Assembly: GCA_009379815.1 (NCBI GenBank)
Contig: WHSY01000002.1
Coordinates: 22,074 to 86,073 of the forward strand
Direction: 5' to 3'
From: Pseudonocardiaceae bacterium
Lineage (GTDB): Bacteria > Actinomycetota > Actinomycetes > Mycobacteriales > Pseudonocardiaceae
Length of the DNA: 64,000 nucleotides
Under the pieces are notes generated by a model. It worked only from the letters and a program-made list of their open reading frames with translations, was not told where the DNA came from and did not search any database. Both the position numbers and the translations under genes were made by a program. Below, in pieces: positions 8,639 to 27,442 of the stretch; position 1 is the first letter of the stretch; each line of letters opens with the position of its first letter.

Positions 8639-8718
8639 CCGCCGACGCCGGCGCGGCGGGAGGTGCTCGGGTCGGCGGCGCGGCGGTGCGGTGGAGTGGC
8701 AGCGGTACAGTTCAGCAG

Positions 8719-11700
8719 GTGGAGACGGGCCGGCTGCGCCTGCGGTTGCTCGGGCGCTTCAGCGTCGAGGGTGACCTCGACGGCCCGCTCCCGAGCGGGA
8801 AGGCGCAGCGGCTGCTCAAGCTGCTCGCCGCCCATCACGGGCAGTTCGTCCCGGTCGACTCGGTGATCGATGCGCTCTGGGGCGACGATCCCCCGCAGCA
8901 CGCCGACCGCAACGTCGCCGTGCTCGTCAGCCGGCTGCGCCGTAGCCTCGGAAGCCGCCGCATCGACGGCGGGCCCAGCGGCTACCGGCTGGTGCTCGAC
9001 GAGCTCACCGTGGTCGACGTCTTCGAGGCCGAGGACCTGGTACAGGCCGCCGAGCGGGAACTGTCCCGGCGGATGTACGCATTGGCCGCGGTGAGCGCGG
9101 AACAGGCGATCAGGCTGCTGGCCGCAGGGCGCCCGCTCACCGACGAGCGCGAGGCGCACTGGGCCGAGGACCTGCAGCGGTTCTCCGAGCGGCAGCTGCG
9201 CCGGGCACGGGCCTGTGGCTGGACCGCGGCGCTGGAGCTCGGCGAGCACCGGACGGCGATCCAGTTGGCCGGTGACGCGGTGGCCGCCGACCCCCTCGAC
9301 GAGGAGGCATGCCGCGCGGTGATGCTCGGTTGCCAGCGTGACGGCGAGTCCGGCGCGGCGCTGGTGGCCTACAAGTCGCTTCGCGCGGCGCTGGCCGAGC
9401 AGCTCGGCAGCGATCCCTCCCCCGCCAGCCAGGCGCTGTTCCTGTCGATCCTGCGTTCCGAGGTTCCGGCGACCTCGTCGCGGTCCAGGTCCCCGGACGC
9501 TGCGGCCGAGCCGTCCCCGCTGGTCGGGCGCGATGCCGAGCTGGAGCGGCTGCTCGACCTGTGGTCGCGGGCCGTGAACGGTTGCGCTGCGGTGGGCCTG
9601 GTCGTCGGGGAGGCCGGGATCGGCAAGAGCGCGCTGGTCGGTGCCGTGGCTGACCAGGTGCGCCATACCGGCGGCCTGGTGCTGGCCACCGGCTGCTCCG
9701 AAGCCGAACGATCGTTGTACCTGCAACCCTTGGTCCAGGCGGTGCGCGAGGCGGTCGCGAGGTTCGACAAGCGCACGATCCGTGACCTAAGCGGGGAGTG
9801 GCTCGGCACGCTCATCGAGCTGGTCCCCGAGCTGGCCCGGCTGACGGGGCCGGTGGGCTACGAGCGGGTCGCGCCCGAGCTCGAACATCGCCGCAGCCTC
9901 GAGGCGCTCGCCGCATTCCTCGCCGGCGTGGCCGAGCGGCAGCCGGTCATGGTGACGATCGAGGACCTGCAGCACGCCGGCCAGTCGACGATCGAGGCGC
10001 TGCACTTCCTCGCCACCCGCTGGGAGCGCGAGCGGATACTCGTGGTCGCCACCGAACGCATGACGGAGGACCCACCTGCCGTGACCCCGCTGCGCGACCT
10101 CGCGTCGTGCCTGCAGCTGCGGCCGTTGCCGATGGCCGCGGTGACGACCCTCGTCGAGCACTCCGGGCTCTCGCTCGACCCCGGTCGGCTCTACGAGTGG
10201 ACCGGCGGGTCGCCGCTGTTCGTCACCGAGCTGCTGCGCCACCCGGGATCGGCCCGGACCGAGCGCATCGAGCTCGGGATCCCGGTCTCGCTGCACGAGG
10301 CGGTCGCGGAGCGGCTGGACCATGCCGGCGAGGACGTCGCACTGGTGCTGGCGCAGGGCGCGATCCTGGGGACGGCCTTCTCGCTGGCGGAGGTCGCCGC
10401 GCTGTCCGGGCTCGACGAGGAGGAGTGTGCGTGGCGGGCGGAACGGGCACTGCGAGCAGGCCTGCTCGTCGAGCGCGGGGACAGCTTCCGGTTCGCCAAC
10501 GACATCGTGCAGCAGGTGGCCTACGACTCGGTCCCGGAGCCGATCCGGATCAGCCGCCACCGCAGGGCAGCCAAGCTGTTCGACGCCCGGCCCGAGGCGG
10601 CCGCGCATCAGCTCGCCGCAGCACACGACTGGCCGGAGGCCGCCAAGGCGTGGCTGCTCGCGGCGCACGCCGCGCACCTCGCGTTCGCGAACCGAGAGGC
10701 CGATCGCCTGCTCACCGAGGCCCTCGGGTCGGCGGAGCGCTCCGGGGACCATGACCTGCTGGCCACCGTCCGGTTCCGTCGGGGCCAGATCCGCACCGAT
10801 CTCGGACGCCACGACGATGCGCGGACCGATCACGAGGGCGCGCTGGCGCTGGCCCGCGAACTCGGCGACGAGGAGCTGGAGGCGCGCGTCCTGGAGCAGC
10901 TCGGCTGGACGGCGCTCTACGCGCGTGACGCGCTGGTCGCGGTGGATCTGGCCGCGCGCGCCAGCCATCTCGCGGAGTCGGCGGCGGCCGCCCCGGGCGC
11001 ACTGCCCAGCTCCCAACTGCTGCTCGGCCGGACGCGGCACTGGGACGGCGACTACTCCGGTGCTGCCTCGGCCTACGAGCAGGTGCTGACCGCGGAGACG
11101 GGTGACACGACGACGGCGATCGCACTGGCGTACCGGGGAGCGCTGCTGCAGCACATGGACCGGTTCGCCGAAGCGCAGTCGGTGCTCGAACGCGCCGCCG
11201 TGCTCTGCCGCCGAAACGGGCAGTTCCGGCTGCTGCTGCAGACGCTGTTCTTCACCGGGCTCGCGCGCGGCGATGTCGGCGACTTCGAGGGCGCGCTGCG
11301 AGCACTGGGCCGGGCTCGGCGACTCCTCGACACCTACGGCGTCAGCTATTACCGCGCGGGGATCGACACCACCACCTCCTGGCTGTGGCAGGAGCTGGGT
11401 GATGTGGGCCGCGCCAGGGAGTACGCCGAGCGTGCGGTGGACCTCGCCCACCGCGGCGGGGGCGCACTCGAGCTGGAGCAGGAGCTGCATGCGCTGCTGG
11501 CGCTGGCCGACTGCGACCTGATGCTCGGGCACGATGACGACGCCGGGGCGCGGGTGGAGGCGGCCGCCCCGATGCTGGAGAAGTCGCTTCCGTTTCAGCC
11601 CCGCGCCACGATGCGGCTGCTGGAGATGCGCGCCCGGTGGGATCCGGGCCAGGCCGAGGCCCTGCTCGAGTACTCGAGGACCTACTCGTCGGCCAAGTAC

Positions 11701-11910
11701 GAGTCGCTGGCACTGCGCCACCTCGGACGCGACGAGGAGGCGGCGCGCAAGGCCGCCGGGACCGGATCGGACCTGCTCGTCGGCCACCTGGGCGGGCCCG
11801 CGGCGAGCCGGGCTGCGGTGGGACGCATCGCCGGGGCGCTCTCGCCCGAGCTCCGGGACAGGTTCCTGTCCGATGGCCGGCTCGTCGGGCCGACCTTCCG
11901 GGCACGCTGA
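8719..11910 (+). CDS. AfsR/SARP-family transcriptional regulator (winged helix + BTAD + NTPase + TPR-like repeats)
   Basis: 3' 1063 codons of track ORF 7591..11910; the 5' part is an argS shadow frame. GTG 8719 gives VETGRLRLRLLGRFSVEG. BTAD region AYKSLRAALAEQLGSDPSPASQALF. Walker A GEAGIGKSAL. The exact start is uncertain. Confidence 0.8.
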   Translation: METGRLRLRLLGRFSVEGDLDGPLPSGKAQRLLKLLAAHHGQFVPVDSVIDALWGDDPPQHADRNVAVLVSRLRRSLGSRRIDGGPSGYRLVLDELTVVDVFEAEDLVQAAERELSRRMYALAAVSAEQAIRLLAAGRPLTDEREAHWAEDLQRFSERQLRRARACGWTAALELGEHRTAIQLAGDAVAADPLDEEACRAVMLGCQRDGESGAALVAYKSLRAALAEQLGSDPSPASQALFLSILRSEVPATSSRSRSPDAAAEPSPLVGRDAELERLLDLWSRAVNGCAAVGLVVGEAGIGKSALVGAVADQVRHTGGLVLATGCSEAERSLYLQPLVQAVREAVARFDKRTIRDLSGEWLGTLIELVPELARLTGPVGYERVAPELEHRRSLEALAAFLAGVAERQPVMVTIEDLQHAGQSTIEALHFLATRWERERILVVATERMTEDPPAVTPLRDLASCLQLRPLPMAAVTTLVEHSGLSLDPGRLYEWTGGSPLFVTELLRHPGSARTERIELGIPVSLHEAVAERLDHAGEDVALVLAQGAILGTAFSLAEVAALSGLDEEECAWRAERALRAGLLVERGDSFRFANDIVQQVAYDSVPEPIRISRHRRAAKLFDARPEAAAHQLAAAHDWPEAAKAWLLAAHAAHLAFANREADRLLTEALGSAERSGDHDLLATVRFRRGQIRTDLGRHDDARTDHEGALALARELGDEELEARVLEQLGWTALYARDALVAVDLAARASHLAESAAAAPGALPSSQLLLGRTRHWDGDYSGAASAYEQVLTAETGDTTTAIALAYRGALLQHMDRFAEAQSVLERAAVLCRRNGQFRLLLQTLFFTGLARGDVGDFEGALRALGRARRLLDTYGVSYYRAGIDTTTSWLWQELGDVGRAREYAERAVDLAHRGGGALELEQELHALLALADCDLMLGHDDDAGARVEAAAPMLEKSLPFQPRATMRLLEMRARWDPGQAEALLEYSRTYSSAKYESLALRHLGRDEEAARKAAGTGSDLLVGHLGGPAASRAAVGRIAGALSPELRDRFLSDGRLVGPTFRAR

Positions 11911-12387
11911 TCAGCCGGTCAGCCCGATCTCCATGAGTACGTGCGGGCGGCCCACGTACTCCTCGACGTCGCCCCGGCGGGCCCAGCCGAGTCGCTCGAA
12001 GAAGCGCTCGTTGGCCAGCTGCACGTGCGCGAGCATCCGGCCACCGCCGCGCCTGCCCGCCGTCTCGACCGCGAAGGCGACCAGCGGGGCGCCCAGACCG
12101 CTGGTCCGGTAGCCGGGCAGCACGGCGAGGCGGTCCCCCTGCCAGGTTCCGGTCGAGGCATCCAGCGGGTAGAGCCGGACGGCACCCGCCGGAACCCCGT
12201 TGTGCAGCCCCAGAACGTGCAGCACGTCGGGCCGCGCGTCCTGGGCGTCCACATCGGACTCGTCGAAGATGGCCTGCTCGCGGACGAAGACCTCGAACCG
12301 GATCCGGTGGTGGGCGGCCAGCTCGGCGGCATCGCCGGCCAGCCGGCAGGACACCGGCCCGGCGCTGACCCCGGACGGCGCGGTCAT
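11911..12387 (-). CDS. GNAT N-acetyltransferase, probably MSMEG_0567/Sll0786 (Nit1C NitE-like) family
   Basis: ATG 12387 overlaps the radical-SAM stop (ATGA). GNAT features FEVFVREQAIF, GAVRLYPL, GDRLAVLPGYRTSGLGAPLV, ANERFFERLGW. The family call rests on coupling to the radical SAM gene. Its stop abuts the AfsR stop with zero spacer. Confidence 0.7.
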   Translation of the reverse strand: MTAPSGVSAGPVSCRLAGDAAELAAHHRIRFEVFVREQAIFDESDVDAQDARPDVLHVLGLHNGVPAGAVRLYPLDASTGTWQGDRLAVLPGYRTSGLGAPLVAFAVETAGRRGGGRMLAHVQLANERFFERLGWARRGDVEEYVGRPHVLMEIGLTG

Positions 12388-13559
12388 CCCGTGCCCTCCC
12401 GCGACGGGCCGGAACCGATCTGCAGCAACGGCTGCACGGTGTTCAGCGCCGAGCACGCCTGGCATCGCGCACACCCGGCGACGGCGGTGTCGGCACCGAG
12501 CCCGCGTTCGGCGAGGTAGCCGGCGACGCGACGGTAGATGCGTTCGGTGTACTCGGCCGGCGGGGCGGGCACGTCCTCCATCAGGCTGCCGGCCACCGGG
12601 CGCAGCGGAACGACGAACGGGTACACCCCGATGTCGATCGCGCGGCGGCACTCGGCCACGGTCAGCTCCGGGTCCTCTCCCATGCCCAGGATCACGTAGG
12701 TCGACACCCGCCCCTCCCCGAACAGCTCCACCGCCCGCTCCCAGGTGCGGAAGTAGGTCTCGATGCCGGTGCGGGCCTTGCCCGGAGCCACCCGCGCGAG
12801 TACCGCCGGGTCGAACGTCTCGACGTGGATCCCGACCGCGTCGATACCGAGACCGGCGACCTCGTCGAGTACCGCGAGGTCACGCGGCGGTTCGAACTGC
12901 ACCTCCACGGGCAGGCCGGCGGCCTCCTTGACGGCGTGACCGCAGCGGGCGACGTAGCGCGCTCCCCGGTCGGGAGCGGCCGAGCTGCCGGTGGTCAGCG
13001 TGGCGTCGACCGCACCATCGAGCTCCTTGGCTGCCACCGCGACCTCGGCGAGCTGCTGCGGCGTCTTGCGCACGATCGTGCGCCCGGCTTCGAGCGACAG
13101 GCCGATGCCGCAGAACCCGCATTGGTCGGAGTTGCCCCAGTAGTTGCAGGTCTGGACCACGGTGCTGGCCAGCGAGTCAAGGTGCAGCAGCGCGATCTTC
13201 CAGTACGGCACGCCGTCGGCGGTCGTCATGTCGTAGAACCGGGGGCGGTGGCTGCTCGTGACCGAGGCGAGCTTTCTCCCGTCCCGGTAGATCCCCTCGC
13301 CGTCGTCCTCGGCCTTGAGTACGTACGGCGAGTGACGTGCGGCCTCGGTCTGCGTGGGCACCGTGGCCGGGATGCCCTCGATCCACAGCATCCCGGAGTC
13401 CGAAGGGCCGGCTCCCCCACGCCGCGTCTCGATCGGCGCCTCGACGCGCAGCCCGACGCTCTGCAGGTCCATGACCAACGCCGCGACGGCTGTCGGGTCC
13501 GCTGCAGTGTCGCGCTCGTCTACTCCCACGACGGACCCGGTACCCAGCTCACCAGTCAT
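12384..13559 (-). CDS. Radical SAM protein, probably MSMEG_0568 (Nit1C NitD-like) family
   Basis: ORF 12384..13559. Cys triad in VVQTCNYWGNSDQCGFCGIG (spacing C-x8-C-x2-C as read). Size and neighbourhood match the Nit1C radical SAM gene. Confidence 0.75.
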   Translation of the reverse strand: MTGELGTGSVVGVDERDTAADPTAVAALVMDLQSVGLRVEAPIETRRGGAGPSDSGMLWIEGIPATVPTQTEAARHSPYVLKAEDDGEGIYRDGRKLASVTSSHRPRFYDMTTADGVPYWKIALLHLDSLASTVVQTCNYWGNSDQCGFCGIGLSLEAGRTIVRKTPQQLAEVAVAAKELDGAVDATLTTGSSAAPDRGARYVARCGHAVKEAAGLPVEVQFEPPRDLAVLDEVAGLGIDAVGIHVETFDPAVLARVAPGKARTGIETYFRTWERAVELFGEGRVSTYVILGMGEDPELTVAECRRAIDIGVYPFVVPLRPVAGSLMEDVPAPPAEYTERIYRRVAGYLAERGLGADTAVAGCARCQACSALNTVQPLLQIGSGPSREGTG

Positions 13560-13645
13560 GCGCTATCCCTCACCTCGAGCACCATTTACTTTAGGAGTCA
13601 GCCATACCTCATAGGAGACCTGTCACCGCATGGTTGTCAAGGCGG

Positions 13646-14005
13646 TCACCCGCGTTCGGTCTCGGACCCGGTGGCGGCGGCCAACTCCCTGCTGCGCAGC
13701 GAACATGCGGCCCGCAGCAACACCTCGTCACCGATCCCGGCAGCAGCGGCCCGATCGACCGTGGCGGCGGCGAGTATCTCGGCAGGCTGCGCCTCGACCG
13801 CGAGCAGCTCCTCGGCGGTGGCCGTCCTGCGGCGCAGCTCGCTGAGCACGGCGCTCACCACGGAGATGACCCGCTGGTAGGCGTCGGGATCGGCCATCAA
13901 CTGCGGGTAGAGCCGGTCCTCGGCAGCCCGCCACCGCATCCGCGCCGCCACCAGCCGGTCAGGTCCCGACCCGCTGCCGTCCACGGGGTCACCTCCCACC
14001 GACAT
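13646..14005 (-). CDS. Hypothetical 119-aa protein heading the rSAM-GNAT unit
   Basis: ORF 13646..14005. ATG preceded by GGAGGAGG (complement of 14012-14019) at 6-nt spacing. Ala/Arg/Leu-rich helical sequence; no family recognised. Confidence 0.5.
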   Translation of the reverse strand: MSVGGDPVDGSGSGPDRLVAARMRWRAAEDRLYPQLMADPDAYQRVISVVSAVLSELRRRTATAEELLAVEAQPAEILAAATVDRAAAAGIGDEVLLRAACSLRSRELAAATGSETERG

Positions 14006-14098
14006 CGACGACCTCCTCCGATGAGTTTACTATAGTGTACGTTGCAGGATCATCCTGAATGTGCAGTGTCCGAGGACGGACCACGGGAGACAACGAAC

Positions 14099-15076
14099 AT
14101 GCCCAGGACAGCCGTCGTCGCGCTCGGGGGCAACGCGATCACCCGAGAGGGCCAGTCCGGCACCCATTCCGAACAGGCGGCCAACGCGCGCGCGATGGCC
14201 GCGGCCGTGTGCTCACTACGTGACGCCGGCTGGCAGGTCGTCCTCGTCCACGGCAACGGGCCGCAGGTGGGCAACCTCGTCATCCAGCAGGACGAGGCTG
14301 CCCACGAAGTGCCACCACTGCCGCTGTTCTGCCTCGACGCGATGACCGAGGGCCAGCTGGGCAGCCTGCTCACGCTGGCGCTGCACGAGCAGGCGGGTGA
14401 CACGCTTCCTGGCGTGGTGTCGGTCGTCACCCACGTGGTGGTCTCGCCGGATGACCCGGCGTTCACCCATCCAGCCAAGCCGATCGGGCCGTTCCTCGAC
14501 CGTGAGCAGGCCGACCGGCTGGCTGCCGGGGGTCGCTGGCAGGTGGCCGAGGATGCCGGGCGTGGCTACCGCCGGGTGGTCGCATCGCCACAGCCGTTGG
14601 ACATCGTCGAGACCGAGGCGATACGGGCGTTGGTCGACCGCGGCATGATCGTCACGGCGGCCGGTGGGGGCGGGGTGCCGGTCGTCGCCGAGGGGCGCGG
14701 CTACCGGGGCATCGACGCCGTCATCGACAAGGACCTCGCGGCGCAGCAGCTGGCGCAGTCGCTCGACGCCGGGGCCCTCGTGCTGGTGACCGACGTGGAC
14801 CAGGTGCTGCTCGACTTCGGCAGTCCGCAGCAGCGGCCGGTCACCGAGCTGACCGCCGATGAGGCGCAACGCCACCTCGACGACGGGCAGTTCCCCGAGG
14901 GGAGCATGGGACCGAAGGTGCGGGCCGCGATCGGCTTCGTCCGGGGCGGCGGCCAGGCCGCCGTGATCACCAGCGCGCAACGGGCCGTACGATCGCTCGA
15001 CGGCGAGCCGCATCCCGATGACGAGGTCGGCACCCGCATCGTCGCGGAGCGGGTGCGGCTGGAGGGAATCTCGTGA
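14099..15076 (+). CDS. arcC: Carbamate kinase
   Basis: ATG 14099 inside track ORF 14042..15076. Hallmarks HGNGPQVG, GGGGVPV, VIDKDL, GSMGPKV. Confidence 0.85.
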   Translation: MPRTAVVALGGNAITREGQSGTHSEQAANARAMAAAVCSLRDAGWQVVLVHGNGPQVGNLVIQQDEAAHEVPPLPLFCLDAMTEGQLGSLLTLALHEQAGDTLPGVVSVVTHVVVSPDDPAFTHPAKPIGPFLDREQADRLAAGGRWQVAEDAGRGYRRVVASPQPLDIVETEAIRALVDRGMIVTAAGGGGVPVVAEGRGYRGIDAVIDKDLAAQQLAQSLDAGALVLVTDVDQVLLDFGSPQQRPVTELTADEAQRHLDDGQFPEGSMGPKVRAAIGFVRGGGQAAVITSAQRAVRSLDGEPHPDDEVGTRIVAERVRLEGIS

Positions 15077-16617
15077 CGACCTCGCTGCGGTTGCACACCG
15101 ACACCTACCTCGACTCGGTGGTGCAGCTGTCCGGAACCCGCGCGATGCGTGAGGTCGACGGCGTGCAGTGGGCGGCAGCCGCGATGGCCACCCCGGCGAA
15201 CCTCGAGACGCTGGCGGGGGAGGGTTTCGGCTCCGAACAGTGGCAAGGCGCGGGCGCCAACGACCTGTTCATCGCGATCCGCGGGGATTCCGAAGACGTG
15301 ATCGAGCAGGCGGTCACGGCCGCCGAGCGGGCGATGTTCGCGCCGCGGGGCGGCGACGAGCCCGGGCAGGGCAGCACCGAGCAACCCGCCAGGACGCTGC
15401 GCGATGCACTGCAGCGCGCGCCGGACAGCAACGTCGCGGTGATCTCGGTGCCCGGCGACTACGCCGCGCTGGAGGCGCACAAGGCGTTGACCGCAGGGCT
15501 GGACGTGCTGCTGTTCAGCGACAACGTGCCCCGCAGCGCCGAGGTCGAGCTCAAGCAGCGTGCCGAACGGCTCGGCCGGCTCGTGATGGGGCCCGGCGCC
15601 GGGACGGCGATGCTCGGTGGCACCTGTCTCGGCTTCGCCAACGTCACCTCGCCGGGGCCGGTCGCCGTCGTCGCGGCCGCCGGTACCGGCGCGCAGGAGG
15701 CGATGAGCCTGCTCGACCGGTGGGGGGTCGGCGTGTCTCATGTCATCGGCCTCGGCGGCCGCGACCTGTCCCGCGAGGTCGGGGGGCCGATGGCCCGCAC
15801 CGCGCTGGCCGCGCTGGCTGCCGACGAGCGCACCGAGCTGATCCTGCTGGTGTCCAAACCGCCGGACCCGGACGTGGCCCGCGCCGTGCTGTCCGCCGCG
15901 GCGGGCACGCCGGTCGTCGCGTCACTGATCGGGCTCGACAGCGGACTGGACGTGCCGGCCGGGGTGACGCAGGCCGCCACCCTCGAGACCGGGGTGGTCG
16001 AGGCGCTGACCGCGATGGGCCGCGCGGCGCCGGACACCGCGGCCGGCCTGGCCGACCGGGTGCGCGAGGTGTGCGAGGAACTGCCGGGCCGGCGCACGCT
16101 GGTCCGCGGCCTGTACTCCGGGGGGACGCTGTGTTACGAGTCCCTGGTGATCCTGTCCCGGATGCTGGGGTCGGTGTATTCGAACACCCCGATCGAGGCC
16201 GGCACCGGGCTGCCCGCCCCGGACGGCAGCCACCTGTGCCTCGACCTGGGCGAGGAGGAGTACACGCAGGGCAGGCCCCACCCGATGATCGACCCGGAGG
16301 CCCGTATCGAGCTGCTGCGGCAGCAGGGTGACGACCCCGACGTGGCGGCGATCATCCTCGACGTCGTGCTCGGCTACGGGGCCCACCCCGACCCCGCGGC
16401 CGAGCTGGCGCCGGTGTGCGCCCAGATCAGCGCGGACGGCGGGCCCAGGGTGGTGACCTACGTGCTGGGCACCGAGCAGGATCCGCAGGGCTTCGCCGCC
16501 CAGCGCAAGGCGTTCTCCGACGCCGGCTGTGTGGTCACCGAGACGGCGGCCCGCGCGTCGCTTGCCGCCGCGGCGATCGCACTGCGCGACCCGGAGCTGG
16601 CCGGGACCGCGCTGTGA
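15073..16617 (+). CDS. FdrA-family protein (succinyl-CoA-ligase-alpha-like; AllF-like)
   Basis: ORF 15073..16617; GTG overlaps the arcC stop (GTGA). N-terminus MTTSLRLHTDTYLDSVVQLSGTRAMR and ~514 aa fit FdrA. Confidence 0.8.
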   Translation: MTTSLRLHTDTYLDSVVQLSGTRAMREVDGVQWAAAAMATPANLETLAGEGFGSEQWQGAGANDLFIAIRGDSEDVIEQAVTAAERAMFAPRGGDEPGQGSTEQPARTLRDALQRAPDSNVAVISVPGDYAALEAHKALTAGLDVLLFSDNVPRSAEVELKQRAERLGRLVMGPGAGTAMLGGTCLGFANVTSPGPVAVVAAAGTGAQEAMSLLDRWGVGVSHVIGLGGRDLSREVGGPMARTALAALAADERTELILLVSKPPDPDVARAVLSAAAGTPVVASLIGLDSGLDVPAGVTQAATLETGVVEALTAMGRAAPDTAAGLADRVREVCEELPGRRTLVRGLYSGGTLCYESLVILSRMLGSVYSNTPIEAGTGLPAPDGSHLCLDLGEEEYTQGRPHPMIDPEARIELLRQQGDDPDVAAIILDVVLGYGAHPDPAAELAPVCAQISADGGPRVVTYVLGTEQDPQGFAAQRKAFSDAGCVVTETAARASLAAAAIALRDPELAGTAL

Positions 16618-17798
16618 CGGCCGCGCGCGCCGGGACGGGCTCCGGCGTTGGGGTCGCACTGGTCACCTACTCCACCAAGCCGCGTGGCGGTGTCGTGCAC
16701 ACGCTGTGCCTGGCCGAGGAGCTGCACCGGCAGGGCTACCCGGTGCATGTGATCACGCTCGGGGATCCCGCGGTGGGCTTCTTCCGGCCGACCACCGTGC
16801 CCCACACGGTGCTACCGGCTCCGGACAAGGGCACCACCCTCGACGAGCGGGTCTTCGCCGCGATCGACGCGCTGACCGAGGGTCTGAGCGACCTCGCCGG
16901 GCACTTCGACATCCTGCACACCCAGGACTGCATCTCCGCGCGGGCCGCAGCCGGAATCCGCGCTGCCGGCCTGCCCGTGACGGTCGTCCGCACGGTGCAC
17001 CACGTCGACGACTTCACCACCCCCGCCCTGATCACCTGCCAGCGCCGGGCGATCGAGGAACCCGATCTGGTGCTCGTGGTCAGCGAGCAGTGGCGGCGGA
17101 TCCTGCGCGCCGACTACGGCGTCGACGCCCTCGTGGTGCCCAACGGCGTCGACACCGAGCGCTTCCCCGCGGTGCCCGCCGCCGCCCGGGCGCAGCTGCG
17201 TGACCGTGCTGGTGCCGACGGGCGGTTCCTGTTCCTGTCCGTCGGTGGTGTCGAGCCCCGCAAGGGCAGCGTGTACCTGTTCGAGGCGCTCGGGCGGTTG
17301 GCGAGCACCCACCGGCTGCGCCCGATGCTCGCCGTCGTCGGCGGGCACTCCTTCCAGGACTACGCGGCCTACCGCGAGGCCGCGCTCGCGTCGCTGCCGT
17401 CGCTCGGGTTGCGGCCCGGCGCGGACGTGATCGAGCTCGGTACCGTCGACGACGCCGAGCTGGCAGGGTGGTACGCCGCCGCCGACGCGCTGGCGTTCCC
17501 CTCGGTCAAGGAGGGCTGGGGGCTGGCGGTGCTCGAGGCGATGAGCATGGACCTGCCGGTGATCGCCAGCAACCTCCCCGTGTTCGGCGAGTACCTCACA
17601 GACGGGCACGACGCGCTGCTCCCGGCCGTCGCCGACAGCACCGCACTGGCCGGCGCCATGGACCGGATGATCACCGACGCTGATCTGCGCGACCGGCTGC
17701 GGACCGGCGGCCGTGAGGTGGTCGAGCGCTTCACCTGGAAAGCCAGCGCCGACCGGCACCGCGACATCTACCGCACGATCCGCTCCGCTCGGCGGTAG
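16614..17798 (+). CDS. GT4 glycosyltransferase, probably MSMEG_0565 family
   Basis: GTG 16614 overlaps the fdrA stop (GTGA), in frame with track ORF 16416..17798. VALVTYSTKPRGGVVHTLCLAEELHRQGYPVHVITLG and FPSVKEGWGLAVLEAMSMDLPVIAS (GT4 C-domain). Confidence 0.75.
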   Translation: MTAARAGTGSGVGVALVTYSTKPRGGVVHTLCLAEELHRQGYPVHVITLGDPAVGFFRPTTVPHTVLPAPDKGTTLDERVFAAIDALTEGLSDLAGHFDILHTQDCISARAAAGIRAAGLPVTVVRTVHHVDDFTTPALITCQRRAIEEPDLVLVVSEQWRRILRADYGVDALVVPNGVDTERFPAVPAAARAQLRDRAGADGRFLFLSVGGVEPRKGSVYLFEALGRLASTHRLRPMLAVVGGHSFQDYAAYREAALASLPSLGLRPGADVIELGTVDDAELAGWYAAADALAFPSVKEGWGLAVLEAMSMDLPVIASNLPVFGEYLTDGHDALLPAVADSTALAGAMDRMITDADLRDRLRTGGREVVERFTWKASADRHRDIYRTIRSARR

Positions 17799-17823
17799 TT
17801 CCGGGTGTGATGAGGTCGCTGCC

Positions 17824-18204
17824 GTGCTTGCCTCACCTCGCCTTGCGGCCGTCCCGTTCGCCGCGGCTGTCGTGCTCAGCGTTCTGGTGCTGTTCACCCC
17901 GGGCGATCGGGTACCGGCCGGTGCGTGGTGGAGCGACGACGTGGTGCACGCGTCACTGTTCGCCCTGCTGGCGGTCACCGGGGTGCTGCTGCCGTGGCGA
18001 TGGACCCGGCTCGCCGCCGGACTCACCGGCTATGCCGTGCTGTCGGAGGTGGTGCACGCGGTCGCCCCGCTGCAGCGCTCGGGCTCGGTGGCGGATGTGG
18101 CGGCCGACCTCGCCGGGATCGCGCTGGGACTCGCCCTGGCCGCCGCGACGGTCACGGTCGCTCGACCGACGGCTCGCTCCACCGACGGGCGGCGCGCCGA
18201 GTGA
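17824..18204 (+). CDS. Small membrane protein, VanZ-like (tentative)
   Basis: In-frame GTG 17824 within track ORF 17713..18204. Three to four hydrophobic segments with DDVVHASLFALLAVTG and VADVAADLAGIALG. The overlapping ORF 17807..18370 is Arg/Cys/Trp-rich junk. Confidence 0.4.
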   Translation: MLASPRLAAVPFAAAVVLSVLVLFTPGDRVPAGAWWSDDVVHASLFALLAVTGVLLPWRWTRLAAGLTGYAVLSEVVHAVAPLQRSGSVADVAADLAGIALGLALAAATVTVARPTARSTDGRRAE

Positions 18205-18251
18205 ACCGGTCCCCCGCCAGGCCGGTACGGCCGCTCGGTCGCGGCGGACGC

Positions 18252-20084
<1,833 letters not shown>

Positions 20085-20150
20085 AACCGGGCCTCCGCGC
20101 CAGGATCACTCCGGCAGTCAGAACCGGAGAGTTCGCTCGGGAACCCGGTG

Positions 20151-21424
20151 TCACATCGTCGGTCGGACCGTCCCCGGCGTCCACGATGGTCGGTTGTTCA
20201 GTGCGTGCACGTCGCCGTGGGTGATCCGCTGGTAGGTCTCGGCCAGTGCGTCGAGCTCGGCCGGGCTGAGCACATCGTCGATGTGGGAGAAGCCGTTCGG
20301 GGCCCGCAGCTCGACCAGCCGCACGTAGTGGTCGGCGGGGTTGGCCCGGGTGGCGAGCACGAGGTCGTTGGTGGGCTGCAAGCGGGCGTGTTCGTAGGCG
20401 CGGATCCCGGCGGCGGGATCTGGCGAGGTCGCGAGCGAGTGTGCGAGTACGCGTCCGTCGATGATGGCTTGCGTGCCGCCGTTGGAGCCGACCGGGAACA
20501 TCGGGTGCGCGGCGTCACCGAGCAGCGTCACCAGCTCGCCGCCCCAATGGGGTAGCGGCTGGCGGTCGACCATCGGGTAGTCCAGGATCTCGGTGGAGCA
20601 GCGGATCAGCCCGGGTGCGTCGAGCCAGTCAGGGCCCCACCCGTCGAAGTGGGCCAAGACGTCGGCGGTGCGGCCGGCGCGGTTCCAGTCCGGCTCGGCG
20701 CCGCCGGCAGCGGCCTGCGGCACCTCGGCCACCCAGTTCACCAACGACCGGCCGCGGTCGGCCGCCTGTTTCGAGATCGGGTATGTCACGATCCGGGGGC
20801 TGCGTTACTGTCGACGATGACCATGCTGTGTCCGGTCAAGAACGGCTCGGTCTCACACACGCCGCGCCACATCCGGATGCCGGCGTAGTGCAACGGCGCC
20901 TGCTCGGGGTGATAGAGCGCTCGTACCGCGGAGTGCAGCCCGTCAGCGCCGACCAACACGTCTCCCGCGAGGGTGCGCGCACTGCCGGTAGACCGGTCGG
21001 TCACTCCAACCGTGACACCGCCGCGCTGCTGCTCGACGCCCTCGAACTGCGCGCCGAGGCGCACCGCGCACGGGCCGAGCCGCGCACGGACCGTGTCCAG
21101 CAACAGCATCTGCAGCTCGCCGCGGTGGATCGAGTACTGCGGCCACCGATACCCGAGAGCCAGCCCGCGGGGCTGGGACCAGATGCGGTTGCCGTGCCGG
21201 TCAACGTGCACGACCTCGGCGGTCGGGATCGCCAGCTCGCGCAGCGCATCGCCCAGGCCGAGCTCGGTGAGCTCGCGCACGGCGTGCGGCTGCAGGTTGA
21301 TGCCCACACCGAGCGGCCGAGGCTCGCGGACGGCCTCGACGACCACGACGTCGACACCGGCCACGCCCAGGCTCAGCGCCGCGGTCAGGCCGCCGATCCC
21401 CGCGCCGACGACGACAACGCGCAT
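20151..21424 (-). pseudogene. FAD-dependent aromatic-ring monooxygenase split by a frameshift
   Basis: N-half (21424..20786) reads MRVVVVGAGIGGLTAALSL..ADGLHSAVR..GHSMVIVDSNAAPGS*. C-half (20789..20151) reads V/MTYPISK..LLGDAAHPMFPVGSNGGTQAIIDG. The two frames overlap by 4 nt next to a C5 run on the coding strand (G run at 20795-20799). Together they form one typical ~425-aa enzyme. Confidence 0.65.
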
Positions 21425-21557
21425 CACGATTCCCCCACGGATCTGGTCACAGGTTGTCGCCGTCGAGCCCGCCCACAGGTCATCGCAGCCTCCAGCCCGT
21501 CCGCTCCACCGGGCAGGGACGCGTGCGCACGAACCGCTCGCGGCGCGATCCACATGT

Positions 21558-21944
21558 CTACGTGCCACTGCCGTAGGGACGGGTGAGGATCTCGAGGTAG
21601 TGGCCGTTCGGGTCCTCGAAGTAGGTGCCGCGGCCGCCGTCGTTATGGTTGATCTGTCCGGGCTGCTGGGGTCCGGGGCCGGCGTAGTGCGTGATCCCGG
21701 CCTGTTGGATGCGAGCGAGGATGGCGTCGAACTCCTGTTCGGACACCAGGAACGCGTAGTGCTGCGGGGTGATCTGGTCGGTGTCGCTGTCGACAAAGTC
21801 CAGGGCGACAGCGTTGCTGGTCTCGACGGGGATGAACGGGCCGTACTGGGCGCCGACCTGCAGCCCCAGGATCGTGGCCAGGAATTCGGCGGCAGCATGC
21901 TTGTCACGGGCCGCGATAACGGTGTGGTTCAGTTCGACGGACAT
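21558..21944 (-). CDS. VOC/glyoxalase-family protein
   Basis: ATG 21944 (GGAGGGC upstream) within track ORF 21558..22052. MSVELNHTVIAARDKHAAAEFLATILGL...YFEDPNGHYLEI is typical of the VOC fold. Confidence 0.8.
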   Translation of the reverse strand: MSVELNHTVIAARDKHAAAEFLATILGLQVGAQYGPFIPVETSNAVALDFVDSDTDQITPQHYAFLVSEQEFDAILARIQQAGITHYAGPGPQQPGQINHNDGGRGTYFEDPNGHYLEILTRPYGSGT

Positions 21945-21997
21945 GGTATTGCCCTCCGGTTCGGTGGTGTCGGCTCTGATCGTTTCCTGAGCTCGGC

Positions 21998-22576
21998 TCA
22001 GGCCTGGTAGGGCTGCTGCGTTCGGTGGTTGCGTAGGGCGTGTGCCCACCACAGGAGCTGGTCAAGTTGCGATTTGGCGGCCGCGTCCGCGGCGGGGTCG
22101 TGGGGGGTTCGGTCGGGGCCGAACCGCTCGGGGTAGTCGTGGAAGCTCACGACGTTGCGGATGGTGGTGGCGTGGACCTCGGCGAAGACCAGCCGCAGCG
22201 CCTCCACCGCCCGCAGCCCCCCGCCGGTGCCGCCGTAGGAGACGAATCCGACGGGTTTGGCCATCCATTCGTCGAAGAACCAGTCGATCGCGGTCTTCAG
22301 CGAGGCGGGGAAGCTGTGGTTGTACTCCGGGGTGACGACCACGAACGCATCCGCGCGCCCGAGCCGGGGCGCCAAGTCGCGCACCGGGGCCGGGGCCGGC
22401 CCGTCCCCCGGTGAGACGTCGGGCAGGTCGGTCTCGACCAGGTCGACGACATCGACGTCGAGGTCCGCGCGCTGGCGTGCCAGGCTGGCGAACCACTCCG
22501 CCACCGTCGGCCCGAACCGCCCGGTGCGGGTGCTGCCGATGATGACCGCCACCCGGGTCCGCTGCGCGCCCACCAT
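21998..22576 (-). CDS. NADPH-dependent FMN reductase
   Basis: ATG 22576 preceded by GAGGAGG. RVAVIIGSTRTGRFGPTVAEWF and AFVVVTPEYNHSFPASLKTAIDW. An alternative ATG lies at 22597. Confidence 0.8.
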   Translation of the reverse strand: MVGAQRTRVAVIIGSTRTGRFGPTVAEWFASLARQRADLDVDVVDLVETDLPDVSPGDGPAPAPVRDLAPRLGRADAFVVVTPEYNHSFPASLKTAIDWFFDEWMAKPVGFVSYGGTGGGLRAVEALRLVFAEVHATTIRNVVSFHDYPERFGPDRTPHDPAADAAAKSQLDQLLWWAHALRNHRTQQPYQA

Positions 22577-22610
22577 GCCGCTCGCCTCCTCGACCATCGA
22601 GAGCGTCGTA

Positions 22611-22634
22611 TCGTTACGTTCCAAGCTGTAACGA
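22611..22634. promoter_or_regulatory. Inverted repeat TCGTTAC-N10-GTAACGA (candidate TetR operator)
   Basis: Perfect 7-bp arms read directly in the 74-nt divergent spacer between the FMN reductase and TetR genes. Confidence 0.4.
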
Positions 22635-22650
22635 AAAGATAGGTTGTGGC

Positions 22651-23310
22651 ATGGCTTCGCGTCAACCCCGTCACGCCTCACCGCCGGCCGGTGGCCGTCC
22701 CCGAGACCCGCACATCGACACGGCGGTGCTCGACGCGACGCTGGCGGTGCTCGACGAGTCGGGATACACCGCGCTCTCGCTCGAAGACATCGCCCGCCGC
22801 GCCGGCACCACCCGACCCGCGATCTACCGCCGCTGGCGCGGACGCGCGCGCCTGGCACTGGCCGCGCTCGCGGTTCGACTCGACGTCGCCGAGGTCCCCG
22901 ACTCCGGCTGCACCCTCTGCGACCTCGGCGAAGGCCTGGGCGTGTTCATCGCCGCGTTCGGCGCCATCCGACCCGATGTGCTCGGACCGCTGCTGGCCGA
23001 ATGCGCACCCGACCCCGAGCTGCACACCGAGTTCATGGCCACCCTGTTCGACCCCCCACGCGCCGCGGTCGCCCGGATGCTCGACCGCGCCGTCGCCCGC
23101 GGCGACCTGCGCGCCGACATCGACCGAGAGCTCGTCCTGGACATGCTCGGCTCCCTCATCCACTACCGCGCCCTGTTCGGACACGCCCCCACGAGCAACA
23201 CCGAGGTCGAAAGCGCCATCGAAGCCCTGCTGCGCGGCATCGCCACCGACTACCCCGCCCTGGTCGAACACAGCAGGCAGCTCCAAGCCGCCCACGCCCC
23301 CCACCCGTAG
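22651..23310 (+). CDS. TetR-family transcriptional regulator
   Basis: ORF 22651..23310. HTH LSLEDIARRAGTTRPAIYRRWRGRARL. Confidence 0.85.
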   Translation: MASRQPRHASPPAGGRPRDPHIDTAVLDATLAVLDESGYTALSLEDIARRAGTTRPAIYRRWRGRARLALAALAVRLDVAEVPDSGCTLCDLGEGLGVFIAAFGAIRPDVLGPLLAECAPDPELHTEFMATLFDPPRAAVARMLDRAVARGDLRADIDRELVLDMLGSLIHYRALFGHAPTSNTEVESAIEALLRGIATDYPALVEHSRQLQAAHAPHP

Positions 23311-23489
23311 TCGAAGGCTGCGCCCCGCCAAAGCCATGTCCGATGCCCCGACAGCGGCTCGCCGTCGTCGCCGGGTGGGACGCCACCCCACCGTGCACTA
23401 CCTACGCCGTGCAACTGGCCAAGGCCTGGGGCGCAGGTCACCGGCGGCGATGCTCGTATAGTTCGATGGCGGGCGGGGCATCCGCCCCG

Positions 23490-23825
23490 TCAGTGGTCGT
23501 GGCCGGCGGGGCGGGATGCGAGCGCCTCGGCGCGGCGGCCGACGTCCTCGGCACCGACCATCCCCCGCTCGACGACCACCGTCTCCAGCGCCTGCAGCCA
23601 GCACCGGTAGTAGCTCCAACACTGTCCGGGCGGATGGTCGCGCTCCCACTCCGCGATCCGCGCGACGAGATGGTCGCGGAAGTCGTCCCAGCCGAACGGC
23701 CCGGCATCGTGCAGCGTCATGGCCAACCCGAACGCGCGGCTCTCCCACGGCTCGCTGAACACCAGCTCGCCGTTGCTGCGCGGGGGCGCCCCGGGGCCCT
23801 CGATGTCGAGCTGCGGTGCCGTCAC
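23490..23825 (-). CDS. Nitrile hydratase accessory protein (small beta-homologous, P14K-type)
   Basis: ORF 23490..23825; GTG overlaps the alpha stop (GTGA). [18 protein letters not shown] parallels [17 protein letters not shown] of the beta subunit encoded upstream. Confidence 0.7.
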
Positions 23826-24418
23826 GACCCGACCTCGGCCACACCTACCATGGTGTCACGGGTGACCATCGCCGCCAGCTCCTCGACTGGGCGCCCCTCG
23901 GTCCCGGCGGGGCGCTGCGGCAGCACGAGGTAGCGGACCTCGGAACTCGAGTCCCACACCTTGATCTCGACATCGGCGGGCAGCGTCAAGCCCATCTCGG
24001 CCAGCACCGCCCGGGGTTCGCGCACCATCCGTGATCGGTAGGCCGGGTCCTTGTACCAGCTGGGGGGCAACCCCAGCACCGGCCAGGGGTAGCACGAGCA
24101 GAGGGAGCAGACGACGACATGGTGGACGTCGGGCGTGTTCTCCACGACGACGATGTGTTCGCCCTGCGGCCCGCCGAAACCCAGCTCCTTGATCGCGGAC
24201 GTGCCCTCGGCGAGCAGCCGTTCCTTGTATTCCGGGTCGGTCCAGGCCTTCGCGACGACCTGCGCCCCGTTGAGTGGGCCGACGTCGTTCTCGTAGGTGG
24301 CGATGAACTTGTCCATCACCGCGGAATCGACCAGGCCGCGCTCGACGAGCAGCTGCTCCAGCGCCTCCGTCCGCAACGACGGCGGCAGCCGATCCCGGTT
24401 CGGTGCGCTCGTGGTCAT
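23822..24418 (-). CDS. nthA: Nitrile hydratase alpha subunit
   Basis: ATG 24418 overlaps the beta stop (ATGA). Metal-binding claw [29 protein letters not shown]. Confidence 0.9.
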
Positions 24419-25080
24419 TCGTCGGCCTCCAGGTAGCTCTCGAACAGGTCCACATGCAGCCGGAAGGACTCCGCGTCCGGACCCCACAGCTCGTGCGAGT
24501 CGAAGCCGACCGCATACACGTACTGCGGGTTCTCGCCGAGGAAGTGCGCGTTGGTGTCGGGCAGCACCGCCGCGGGCTGGATCAGCTCGATCACGCCGCG
24601 GTGGCCCCGCAGGTAGCCGCACAGCCGAGTGTGGCCCTCGGGGTGGATGTCCTTGGCCCGGACCCGGTCGCCCACCGCGAAGCGCGGGGGCTCCGCCACG
24701 GTCCGCAGCTGGCCCGCCGCCGTGTTCTGGTAGTCGGGTTTGTTCGGCTCCGGGAAGGCCGGCTGGTCCGTCTGCTCACCACGGTTGGCGCGGGCCCGCG
24801 CATTGACCGCCCCGGGGGCCAGGATGGCGCTGTCGGTGAGCATCAGCTCGGCGGCGTTGAGCCAGCGCCCGTAGTACCCGTCCGCCAGGTAGTCGTCGCG
24901 AGGCAGCCGTTCGAGGGCGTGCCGGAAGGCGTCGAGGTTGCGGCCGGACACCCGGCCCATCGACAGCAGGGTCAGCGCGAACGCCCGGCCCTCCCAGGAT
25001 TCCGCGAAGACCGGCTCATCGACGGGCACGGGGGCACGTCCCCAACCCCGGGTTCCGCCCATGTCGGCGATCGTTTCCAC
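24415..25080 (-). CDS. nthB: Nitrile hydratase beta subunit
   Basis: GTG 25080 preceded by GGGAGG, in frame with track ORF 24415..25143. [18 protein letters not shown]...[13 protein letters not shown]...[28 protein letters not shown] is a typical beta layout. Confidence 0.85.
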
Positions 25081-25099
25081 ATGGCCTCCCTGCGGTCGG

Positions 25100-25147
25100 C
25101 CTCGTGAGTGGCGATACGAGTCATGACTCGTATCGCCACTCACGAGG
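25100..25147. repeat. 48-bp perfect palindrome of the CGTGAGTGGCGATRCGAG family
   Basis: CCTCGTGAGTGGCGATACGAGTCA|TGACTCGTATCGCCACTCACGAGG read directly. It fills most of the 75-nt spacer between the 161-aa gene and nthB. Confidence 0.85.
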
Positions 25148-25155
25148 CGAAGCCA

Positions 25156-25641
25156 TCACACCGTCCAGGTCTGCATGATCAGAGCGTTCTCGCGACGGGC
25201 GGTGAGCACGGCATCCAGCACGTCGAGCGGGTTGATCGGCTTGACGCCTTCCATCATGTCGACCTCGCGCATGCCGTAGAGCATCGCGGCCGAGAACCGG
25301 CACGCGTAGACGTGCCCACCCTCGTCCATGAACGTCTGCAGCTGCTTGTTGTACATCAGCGCGCCGGGGAACGCCTCGTCACCGACGGTGGGGAAGCCGC
25401 GGGAGGCCGACGCCATCAACGAACCGGGACCGTAGAGCACCAGGTGGGTGTCGAAACCCTTGCGGTTGATCCGGGTACAGGTGAGCTGATTCACCAGGCC
25501 CACCGACCCCTCGAAGGGCACGGTGTGCATCAGCACGTACGCCTTCTCGCCCGGCTGGGCCTGGATGTCCTCGAAGACCTTGTCCTCGTAGTCGACGATC
25601 GCGTCGCCCTTCTTGACCCTTTCACCCACGATCTGAGCCAT
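25156..25641 (-). CDS. 161-aa protein, probably MSMEG_0572/Sll0783 (Nit1C NitB-like) family
   Basis: ORF 25156..25641 with strong AAGGAGG upstream. The size, and its position directly upstream of the nitrile-converting enzyme and downstream of flavoprotein + small ORF, match the Nit1C layout. The family call needs an HMM check. Confidence 0.55.
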
Positions 25642-27330: not shown

Positions 27331-27442
27331 ACGAACTCCTCTTCCACGACCTAGGATGGTGCCGTCCTTCGGCAAAGACGTTCACCATATGCAATACCGA
27401 TCTACTATACTAATCGCGATCACCGTGTCAAGGAGCGTCAGC

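Follow-up and report, generated by a model that had tools for sequence, protein, structure and literature searches.

Organization of the arcC-fdrA-glycosyltransferase operon

The window analyzed here is a 64,000-nt stretch of actinobacterial DNA (~72% GC; contig C222, positions 22074–86073) from the genome of a Pseudonocardiaceae bacterium (5.4 Mb in 733 contigs), and its gene layout was derived from third-position GC frame analysis combined with profile searches. At its center of interest lie three forward-strand genes in which a carbamate kinase and an FdrA-type protein are joined to a glycosyltransferase (GT) otherwise known from the canonical Nit1C/gpr cluster, which we take to be nitBCDEFGH of Pseudomonas, sll0783–0787, and MSMEG_0565–0572. 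The first gene of the operon encodes an arcC-like carbamate kinase (14099–15076; NF009007 and PF00696), followed by fdrA (15073–16617; NF004760, with the CoA_binding domain PF02629 and the Ligase_CoA domain PF00549), whose product is an FdrA/AllF-type subunit with a succinyl-CoA-synthetase-alpha-like fold. The last gene encodes a GT4 glycosyltransferase of the MSMEG_0565 family (16614–17798; TIGR04047). As the first-pass annotation of this DNA had stated, the three genes are linked by two forward-strand GTGA stop/start overlaps, located at 15073–15076 (...atctcGTGAcgacc) and 16614–16617 (...gcgctGTGAcggcc), respectively. At both junctions, which read ctcGTGAcg (arcC/fdrA) and ctGTGAcg (fdrA/GT), the downstream GTG start overlaps the upstream TGA stop by 4 nt.

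The start codons were supported by profile alignments, homologue lengths, and ribosome-binding-site-like sequences. For arcC (ATG at 14099), the profile alignment opens three codons in, and GGGAG is found upstream. For fdrA (GTG at 15073), residue 8 corresponds to profile position 7, and a GGAGGG Shine-Dalgarno sequence lies 7 nt upstream, inside the 3′ end of arcC. The GT start (GTG at 16614) agrees with homologues of 385–395 aa; the database gene model begins at GTG 16416 and gives a 460-aa protein.

The conservation of this arrangement was examined in the best 80 of 504 FdrA relatives (one genome per species scanned; 59–75% identity), which span Pseudonocardiaceae, Actinomycetospora, Acidimicrobiales, Nocardioidaceae, Jiangellaceae, Jatrophihabitantaceae, Microbacteriaceae, Micromonosporaceae, and others. 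Neighboring genes in these 80 loci were counted by tblastn using the window proteins, with the loci that had enough sequence as denominators. Directly upstream of fdrA, arcC was found in 75 of 77 loci, and GT followed directly downstream in 69 of 75. Four-base overlaps are frequent in high-GC actinobacteria, and a single case carries little weight; in the related loci, the 4-nt overlap was retained at 65 of 77 arcC/fdrA junctions and 62 of 72 fdrA/GT junctions, a level far above chance. Because the overlap (ATGA or GTGA) and its flanking codons vary between loci, it is maintained rather than simply passed on by descent. In most relatives, just 40–200 nt separate the 3′ end of GT from a convergent operon, so GT is presumably the last gene and arcC-fdrA-GT a three-gene unit. 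Judging from these comparisons, arcC-fdrA-GT is in all likelihood a genuine operon of three translationally chained genes with GT at its end. An apparent FdrA::GT fusion protein (a 905-aa open reading frame in the Thermoleophilia locus L090) was rejected, as it consists of the GT frame remaining open through the fdrA region; FdrA itself is read in a different frame, which closes shortly upstream of the GT start. No FdrA-GT fusions were found.

The operon is transcribed divergently from a unit of three reverse-strand genes, which also agrees with the first-pass annotation. The first gene of this divergent unit is a high-GC3 frame encoding a hypothetical protein of 119 aa (hyp119; 13646–14005), which had no Pfam or NCBIfam match and is weakly conserved in Pseudonocardiaceae loci. 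It is followed by an MSMEG_0568-family radical SAM gene (rSAM; 12384–13559; TIGR04043, 401 bits against a cutoff of 304) and an MSMEG_0567/Sll0786-family gene with a GNAT domain only (11911–12387; TIGR04045, 99 bits against 68), and the latter two are joined by an ATGA overlap. The rSAM gene was divergent and within 2.5 kb of fdrA in 51 of 64 related loci. The 86-nt spacer between hyp119 and rSAM (13560–13645) is relatively AT-rich and contains an exact TTGACA; it may hold an internal promoter for rSAM and GNAT.

The hyp119/arcC intergenic region contains the palindrome ACTATAGT (14029–14036, both strands), which reads TATAGT on either strand. It has no further exact copy in the window and a single one elsewhere in the 5.4-Mb genome, at position 14449 of contig C554. 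The degenerate form ACTA[TG]NNT occurred within 160 nt upstream of arcC in 67 of 74 related loci (exact in 38 of 74), with a median distance of 63 nt to the start codon, against a background of 0.011 per 160 nt, and the palindrome was often extended in related loci, e.g., TCTACTATAGTAGA. We regard ACTATAGT as a candidate bidirectional −10 element or operator common to both divergent operons. A promoter and terminator consensus scan of 11800–18400 gave no match, such consensus sequences being uninformative for high-GC actinobacteria, and an Rfam scan of 13500–18400 likewise gave none.

Conservation, phylogeny, and the slot upstream of the glycosyltransferase

The proteins of the operon resemble those of the oxamic transcarbamylase system of Escherichia coli. 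The arcC product exceeded the cutoff of NF009007 (302 versus 266 bits) and was 44% identical to E. coli AllK. FdrA aligned with E. coli AllF across 490 aa at 40% identity and had the motifs GTGAQE, GGRDLS, SKPP, and GRPHPMIDP in common with it. These AllF-specific motifs are kept in both FdrA clades described below (GT-linked and E. coli-type), and the phosphohistidine loop GHAGA of SucD was absent from both. Structures of the family are orphan entries only, namely 3dmy (FdrA) and 3clq (DUF1116), the former of which matched the window FdrA at 1e-75. The GT scored 369 bits to TIGR04047 (cutoff 260), and its cluster context was confirmed by TIGR04043, TIGR04045, and TIGR04044, all over their cutoffs within the window.

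The predicted partner of FdrA, an AllG (DUF1116) homologue, is encoded at 28794–30200 on the reverse strand, at the tail of a ComA/Xcb-like operon (PF06545, 218 bits), and is adjoined by an AllH (DUF2877) homologue at 27976–28797 on the same strand (PF11392, 73 bits). AllG was 37% identical to E. coli AllG and matched 3clq; AllH was 36% identical to E. coli AllH over its C-terminal part only. Residues 7–54 of the window AllG match positions 507–554 of the E. coli-type FdrA profile, that is, the C-terminal tail of ~50 aa that the window FdrA lacks, which suggests that the FdrA/AllG subunit boundary has shifted between lineages. Because the FdrA tail is homologous to the AllG N-terminus, FdrA and AllG are probably parts of one physical complex despite the 12-kb separation of their genes.

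In the source genome, arcC, fdrA, allG, and allH are single-copy and all lie inside the cluster. No allC or allE was found in this genome, and matches to allB- and allD-like genes were weak only; allantoin/oxalurate genes of the allECD type were found neither in the window nor in the related loci.

The first-pass annotation had left open whether FdrA co-occurs with Nit1C markers outside this genome, and such co-occurrence was present in a sample of 401 Actinomycetota genomes drawn evenly across the phylum. A GT over the TIGR04047 cutoff was found in 16 of these genomes and an FdrA homologue in 47. FdrA was encoded immediately upstream of GT on the same strand in 13 of the 16 GT-bearing genomes and was split at contig ends in one more, and the remaining two without FdrA (G178 and G366) had canonical gpr-type clusters. 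The other 33 genomes with FdrA had allG directly after fdrA, often with arcC nearby, and no Nit1C marker or allantoin genes. Among the 15 genomes with a GT-linked FdrA, AllG was present in all (mostly on the same contig), ArcC in 12, and AllH in 10; none of the three was found in either of the two canonical genomes. The homologue listings for the GT and for a Thermoleophilia FdrA comprised close relatives only, and all matches listed were from Actinomycetota.

Phylogenetic trees were built by quick searches, with the Shimodaira-Hasegawa-like approximate likelihood ratio test (SH-aLRT) as the only support measure, and the FdrA tree was rooted with the SucD of the source genome. All GT-linked FdrAs, including that of the window, fell into one clade (SH-aLRT 100), which also takes in sequences without an adjacent GT, most of them from loci interrupted by a contig end and a few from loci in which GT is not a neighbor. 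E. coli AllF and every allG-adjacent FdrA fell outside this clade. Likewise, the cluster-type AllGs formed a clade (support 100), and the cluster-type ArcCs lay on one side of a single branch (SH-aLRT 98). The sole outlier in the AllG tree was the second, fdrA-adjacent copy in L077, a locus of a metagenome-assembled Actinophytocola genome. In this locus, a canonical fdrA-allG pair (38% identity) stands beside the GT-linked arcC-fdrA-GT. The grouping with ordinary allantoin loci that the first-pass annotation had named as a contrary outcome thus did not occur. Since the FdrA, AllG, and ArcC clades are separate from both the E. coli-type and the fdrA-allG-adjacent loci, the carbamoyl module appears to have co-evolved with the cluster. 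The other actinobacterial fdrA-allG(-arcC) loci belong to the same families (38–49% identity to the window FdrA) but differ in having allG directly after fdrA, in lacking a TIGR04047 GT or Nit1C marker nearby, and in falling outside the GT-linked clade. The earlier suggestion that the carbamoyl- and ATP-related genes and the Nit1C-type genes serve one pathway is strongly supported by the conserved arrangement, the distinct clades, the single copies within the cluster, and the lack of allC and allE.

The comparison with 80 metagenome loci carrying canonical-type GTs revealed a positional swap. In 62 of the 63 canonical-type loci with enough sequence, a carbon-nitrogen hydrolase (CN-hydrolase) of the MSMEG_0566 type lies directly upstream of GT; the junctions are tight, 28 of them with a 4-nt overlap. 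The other genes of these loci occur in at least three different orders. In the two canonical actinobacterial clusters, the gene orders are 0572 - CN-hydrolase - 0569 - rSAM - GNAT::AIR-like - CN-hydrolase(0566) - GT and 0572 - rSAM - GNAT::AIR-like - CN-hydrolase - 0569 - CN-hydrolase(0566) - GT, where AIR-like denotes an aminoimidazole ribonucleotide (AIR)-synthase-like domain. FdrA, ArcC, AllG, AllH, ComA, and nitrile hydratase (NHase) were found in none of the 80 canonical-type loci, and no CN-hydrolase was found within 10 kb in any FdrA-type locus, the cluster of the window included. FdrA thus occupies the slot directly upstream of GT that is held by the MSMEG_0566-type CN-hydrolase in canonical clusters, an observation that is new here. 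In the GT tree, a single branch (SH-aLRT 100) separates the FdrA-linked from the CN-hydrolase-linked GTs, consistent with a single change of partner. The MSMEG_0565 GT is accordingly chained to an upstream C-N-cleaving enzyme of the amide or carbamoyl type in both cases, which is hydrolytic in canonical clusters and, by predicted activity, AllF-type here. A further candidate, in which arcC and FdrA would stand in for the AIR-synthase-like (PurM-type) domain, was rejected, because the window itself has a probable sll0787-type gene, as do 29 related loci.

The window cluster and the canonical Nit1C/gpr cluster have the MSMEG_0572/Sll0783, radical SAM, GNAT, and GT4 families and probably the AIR-synthase-like family in common, and in both, GT comes last and is closely coupled to the C-N-bond-cleaving enzyme (predicted for the window) encoded before it. 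The window cluster differs in lacking the nitrilase (TIGR04048)/CN-hydrolase and the MSMEG_0569 flavoprotein, in place of which it has a CoA-disulfide-reductase-like protein, and in encoding GNAT and the putative AIR-like protein as separate genes. It also adds arcC, FdrA, AllG, AllH, and Xcb-like coenzyme-M-type genes, as well as NHase, which is present in about half of the FdrA-type loci, and the GTs of the two cluster types are sister clades.

Predicted carbamoyl chemistry and alternative readings

In E. coli K-12, fdrA-ylbE-ylbF-ybcF are contiguous and adjoin allECD, and the first-pass account of them as encoding oxamic transcarbamylase (AllFGH) and a catabolic carbamate kinase (AllK) is borne out by the K-12 gene order and the literature (PMC11326118, PMC9843812). 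AllFGH is the only member of its family with proven activity, namely oxalurate + Pi <-> oxamate + carbamoyl phosphate (PMC11326118). The window encodes the same four protein families, and because their identity to AllF, AllG, AllH, and AllK is 36–44% and the AllF motifs are kept, the same chemistry is plausible: one would expect a carbamoyl group to be exchanged between phosphate and a compound of the N-acyl-urea type, with carbamate kinase coupled to this reaction. The window differs from E. coli in that the four genes are not contiguous, arcC-fdrA being chained to GT and allG-allH ending another operon 12 kb off. It also differs in the absence of allantoin genes, in the separate clades of FdrA, AllG, and ArcC, and in the position of the ~50-aa FdrA tail, and the substrate of its enzyme is probably not oxalurate.

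Starting from the observed operon anatomy, conservation, separate clades, and positional swap, we infer an enzyme activity, a direction, and a substrate type as follows. The best explanation, which we advance tentatively, is that the operon and its clade-specific FdrA, together with AllG and AllH, provide a cluster-dedicated oxamate-transcarbamylase-like enzyme that replaces the CN-hydrolase in its slot and acts in decarbamoylation. FdrA, AllG, and AllH would do with phosphate what the 0566-type hydrolase does with water. An intermediate of the pathway would bear a heteroatom-bound carbamoyl group (of the ureido, acyl-urea, or thiocarbamate type), and its cleavage by phosphate would release the free intermediate and carbamoyl phosphate. 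ArcC would then convert carbamoyl phosphate to ATP, NH3, and CO2; in lineages without arcC, it would enter the general carbamoyl-phosphate pool. The glycosyltransferase would work on the same small-molecule scaffold. A comparable choice exists in the agmatine deiminase pathway, where N-carbamoylputrescine is decarbamoylated either hydrolytically by the CN-hydrolase AguB or phosphorolytically by putrescine transcarbamylase and carbamate kinase, with ATP harvest. The swap between CN-hydrolase and FdrA plus ArcC follows the same hydrolytic/phosphorolytic logic; the predicted transcarbamylase of the window differs in being AllFGH-type and unrelated to the fold of ornithine and aspartate transcarbamylases (OTC/ATC), and the equivalence is read from gene position only. 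The predicted release of NH3 fits the nitrogen-starvation context described for the cluster family in both Mycobacterium smegmatis and cyanobacteria (PMC6039565; NCBIfam family names). The gpr cluster of M. smegmatis is GlnR-dependent, and its phenotypes concern peroxide resistance and biofilm on low nitrogen (PMC6039565).

Several observations weigh against this explanation. ArcC scored just under the cutoff of TIGR00746 (349 versus 358 bits), and FdrA fell under that of NF004760 (411.6 versus 433 bits), covering profile positions 7–493 of 555 with the C-terminal tail missing. AllG and AllH are not co-translated with FdrA, as they are encoded 12 kb away in another operon and FdrA is chained to GT instead. 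AllH was undetected in 5 of the 15 genomes with GT-linked FdrA. Three genomes of one genus (G223, G236, and G360; 1.5–1.8 Mb) have no arcC and no detectable AllH, and their FdrA is N-terminally shorter, matching from approximately residue 93 only; the fdrA-GT adjacency and AllG are kept in all three. With respect to the positional swap, the similarity of the MSMEG_0566-type protein to carbamoylase and nitrilase models is confined to the superfamily level, the canonical metagenome loci are partly near-duplicates and so not all independent, and positional replacement is no proof of functional equivalence. Moreover, the direction of the reaction is not readable from sequence.

The last point leaves room for a biosynthetic direction, in which ArcC or carbamoyl-phosphate synthetase would supply carbamoyl phosphate and FdrA, AllG, and AllH would carbamoylate an amide, amine, or thiol of the glycosylated cluster product. 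E. coli AllFGH was assayed in vitro in the direction starting from carbamoyl phosphate and oxamate (PMC11326118), the last gene of the operon encodes a GT4 of biosynthetic type (MshA/BshA-like superfamily), and the rSAM, GNAT, AIR-synthase-like, and Xcb-like genes of the cluster also look biosynthetic. In addition, ArcC is dispensable in some lineages, as expected if primary metabolism supplies carbamoyl phosphate. However, the canonical slot is held by a hydrolase, which fits the removal of a group rather than its addition, and bacterial carbamate kinases mostly work in the ATP-forming direction. Known natural-product carbamoylations use other transferase families, and the cluster family is tied to nitrogen starvation (PMC6039565). 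We consider the biosynthetic direction possible but unlikely.

Another reading dispenses with carbamoyl chemistry altogether: FdrA would work in the manner of an NDP-forming acyl-CoA synthetase or form an acyl phosphate, thereby activating a carboxylate for use in the GT or GNAT step, and arcC would encode a kinase co-opted for another acyl phosphate. It accords with the CoA_binding and CoA-ligase domains that FdrA has in common with the alpha subunit of succinyl-CoA synthetase, with the database name "acyl-CoA synthetase FdrA", and with the chaining of FdrA to GT and not to AllG or AllH. This reading appears very unlikely, given that FdrA has AllF-specific motifs and not the GHAGA loop, that AllG accompanies it in 15 of 15 genomes and ArcC adjoins it in 75 of 77 loci, and that the sole family member of proven activity is a carbamoyltransferase (PMC11326118). 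That ordinary oxalurate/allantoin catabolism genes merely happen to lie beside Nit1C-type genes without a shared pathway is hardly credible: all four E. coli allFGHK homologues are indeed present, but the comparative data already contradict this idea, as the arrangement is kept in ~80 species and in 13 of 16 GT-bearing genomes, the clades stand apart from those of E. coli and the fdrA-allG-adjacent loci, the genes are distributed over two operons of the cluster, and no allB, allC, allD, or allE lies nearby or was convincingly found in the genome.

If the phosphorolytic decarbamoylation proposed above is extended to the rest of the cluster, an energy-conserving route for heteroatom-bound one-carbon C-N units can be drawn, although we regard this extension as speculative and quite unlikely. 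A carrier made by the cluster, possibly the coenzyme-M-type thiol, which the CoA-disulfide-reductase-like flavoprotein would keep in its reduced form, would bear a cyano group on S or N, and NHase or, in other lineages, an amidohydrolase would hydrate this cyano group to a carbamoyl group. Phosphorolysis by FdrA, AllG, and AllH would follow, and ArcC would yield ATP, NH3, and CO2. In canonical Nit1C clusters, two CN-hydrolases would accomplish this conversion without gaining ATP. If this were true, the Nit1C family would be a nitrogen-scavenging system of the cyanide, cyanamide, or thiocyanate type, and the AllFGH family would be a general "carbamoyl phosphorylase" and not an allantoin enzyme.

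The comparisons tie a whole AllF/AllG/ArcC clade to the Nit1C glycosyltransferase in many Actinomycetota and would widen the substrate range expected of the AllFGH family, whose function was assigned only in 2024 and for oxalurate only. The Nit1C/gpr/sll0783–0787 cluster was described in 2005 and has been linked to cyanide assimilation, nitrogen starvation, polyhydroxybutyrate accumulation, and peroxide resistance. Some 20 years after this description, the present results offer a chemical clue to its function, namely the prediction that the intermediate at the GT step would bear a hydrolysable or phosphorolysable carbamoyl or amide group. Cultured carriers of the FdrA-type cluster exist among Pseudonocardia, Actinomycetospora, and Nocardioides species, e.g., Pseudonocardia hydrocarbonoxydans NBRC 14498 (L023) and Actinomycetospora chibensis (L047). 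Our literature search found nothing tying FdrA, DUF1116, or DUF2877 to Nit1C, nitrile hydratase, coenzyme M, or MSMEG_0565–0572, and the published gene list of canonical nit1C contains no FdrA, DUF1116, or DUF2877 genes (PMC11049912).

Other genes of the cluster

Convergent to GT lies an NHase cassette (23490–25143), followed by a reverse-strand gene for the Nit1C marker of the MSMEG_0572/Sll0783 family (25156–25641; TIGR04044, 223 bits against a cutoff of 110). NHase alpha and beta genes were found within 10 kb in 35 of the 80 related loci, and in 25 of the 53 that had at least 9 kb of downstream sequence. The first-pass annotation had speculated that an NHase-derived amide is the carbamoyl acceptor or product. 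As a general rule this does not hold, because NHase is present in 35 of 80 loci and arcC-fdrA-GT is nearly universal; for NHase-bearing clusters the idea is still viable. NHase could feed the FdrA enzyme only if the nitrile is borne on a heteroatom (N or S), since the hydrated product would otherwise have no transferable carbamoyl group.

Next to the MSMEG_0572-family gene, a flavoprotein is encoded at 25978–27375, which matched CoA-disulfide reductase models only, below their cutoffs. The MSMEG_0569 flavoprotein (TIGR04046) was not found in the window cluster, and among the related loci its canonical form was present only in L086 and L087. A putative sll0787-type AIR-synthase-like gene (PurM superfamily) was located by tblastn with the C-terminal domain of a canonical MSMEG_0567 protein, at 35899–36843 on the forward strand (start approximate; TIGR04049, 243 bits against a cutoff of 321). 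A SARP-family regulator, identified by frame analysis and profile search, is encoded on the forward strand at 8641–11910.

Directly upstream of allG, an XcbC-like lyase is encoded on the reverse strand (30200–31708; 420 bits against the XcbC cutoff of 575), which clears the cutoff for argininosuccinate lyase (argH; 291 versus 279.5 bits). The other Xcb-like proteins also scored below the respective cutoffs (XcbD, 570 versus 600; XcbE, 237 versus 450; ComA, 226 versus 280), and because of these scores, the sulfonate product of the cluster is perhaps not coenzyme M itself. In L086, a locus of the canonical mycobacterial type, the genes after GT encode an NtaA/DmoA-family monooxygenase and an SsuD-like alkanesulfonate monooxygenase (10849–13519), and these monooxygenases are a further hint that Nit1C-type clusters are connected with sulfonates.

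A variant arrangement was observed in Thermoleophilia (L088, 4141–11276; L090), where the gene order is arcC, class I/II aminotransferase, luciferase-like monooxygenase, Orn/DAP/Arg-type pyridoxal-phosphate-dependent decarboxylase, fdrA, and GT. In these loci, rSAM and MSMEG_0572 are also separated by an Amidohydro_2 gene, and ComA or Xcb genes were not found within 20 kb.

In the window, GT and the convergent NHase operon are separated by ~5.6 kb (17800–23400), which contain a VanZ-like open reading frame, a DUF222 protein gene (18252–20084), and genes for an FAD monooxygenase, a VOC/FosA-like protein, an FMN-reductase-like protein, and a TetR regulator. The region has the appearance of an insertion, since the distance from the 3′ end of GT to the NHase or MSMEG_0572 operon is just 40–200 nt in relatives. 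The FAD monooxygenase gene (PRK07538 type; 20151–21424, reverse strand) is split into an N-terminal half (20786–21424; profile positions 3–209) and a C-terminal half (20151–20789; positions 215–416), which are in different frames and meet at 20786–20789, reflecting either a frameshifted pseudogene or a sequencing error.

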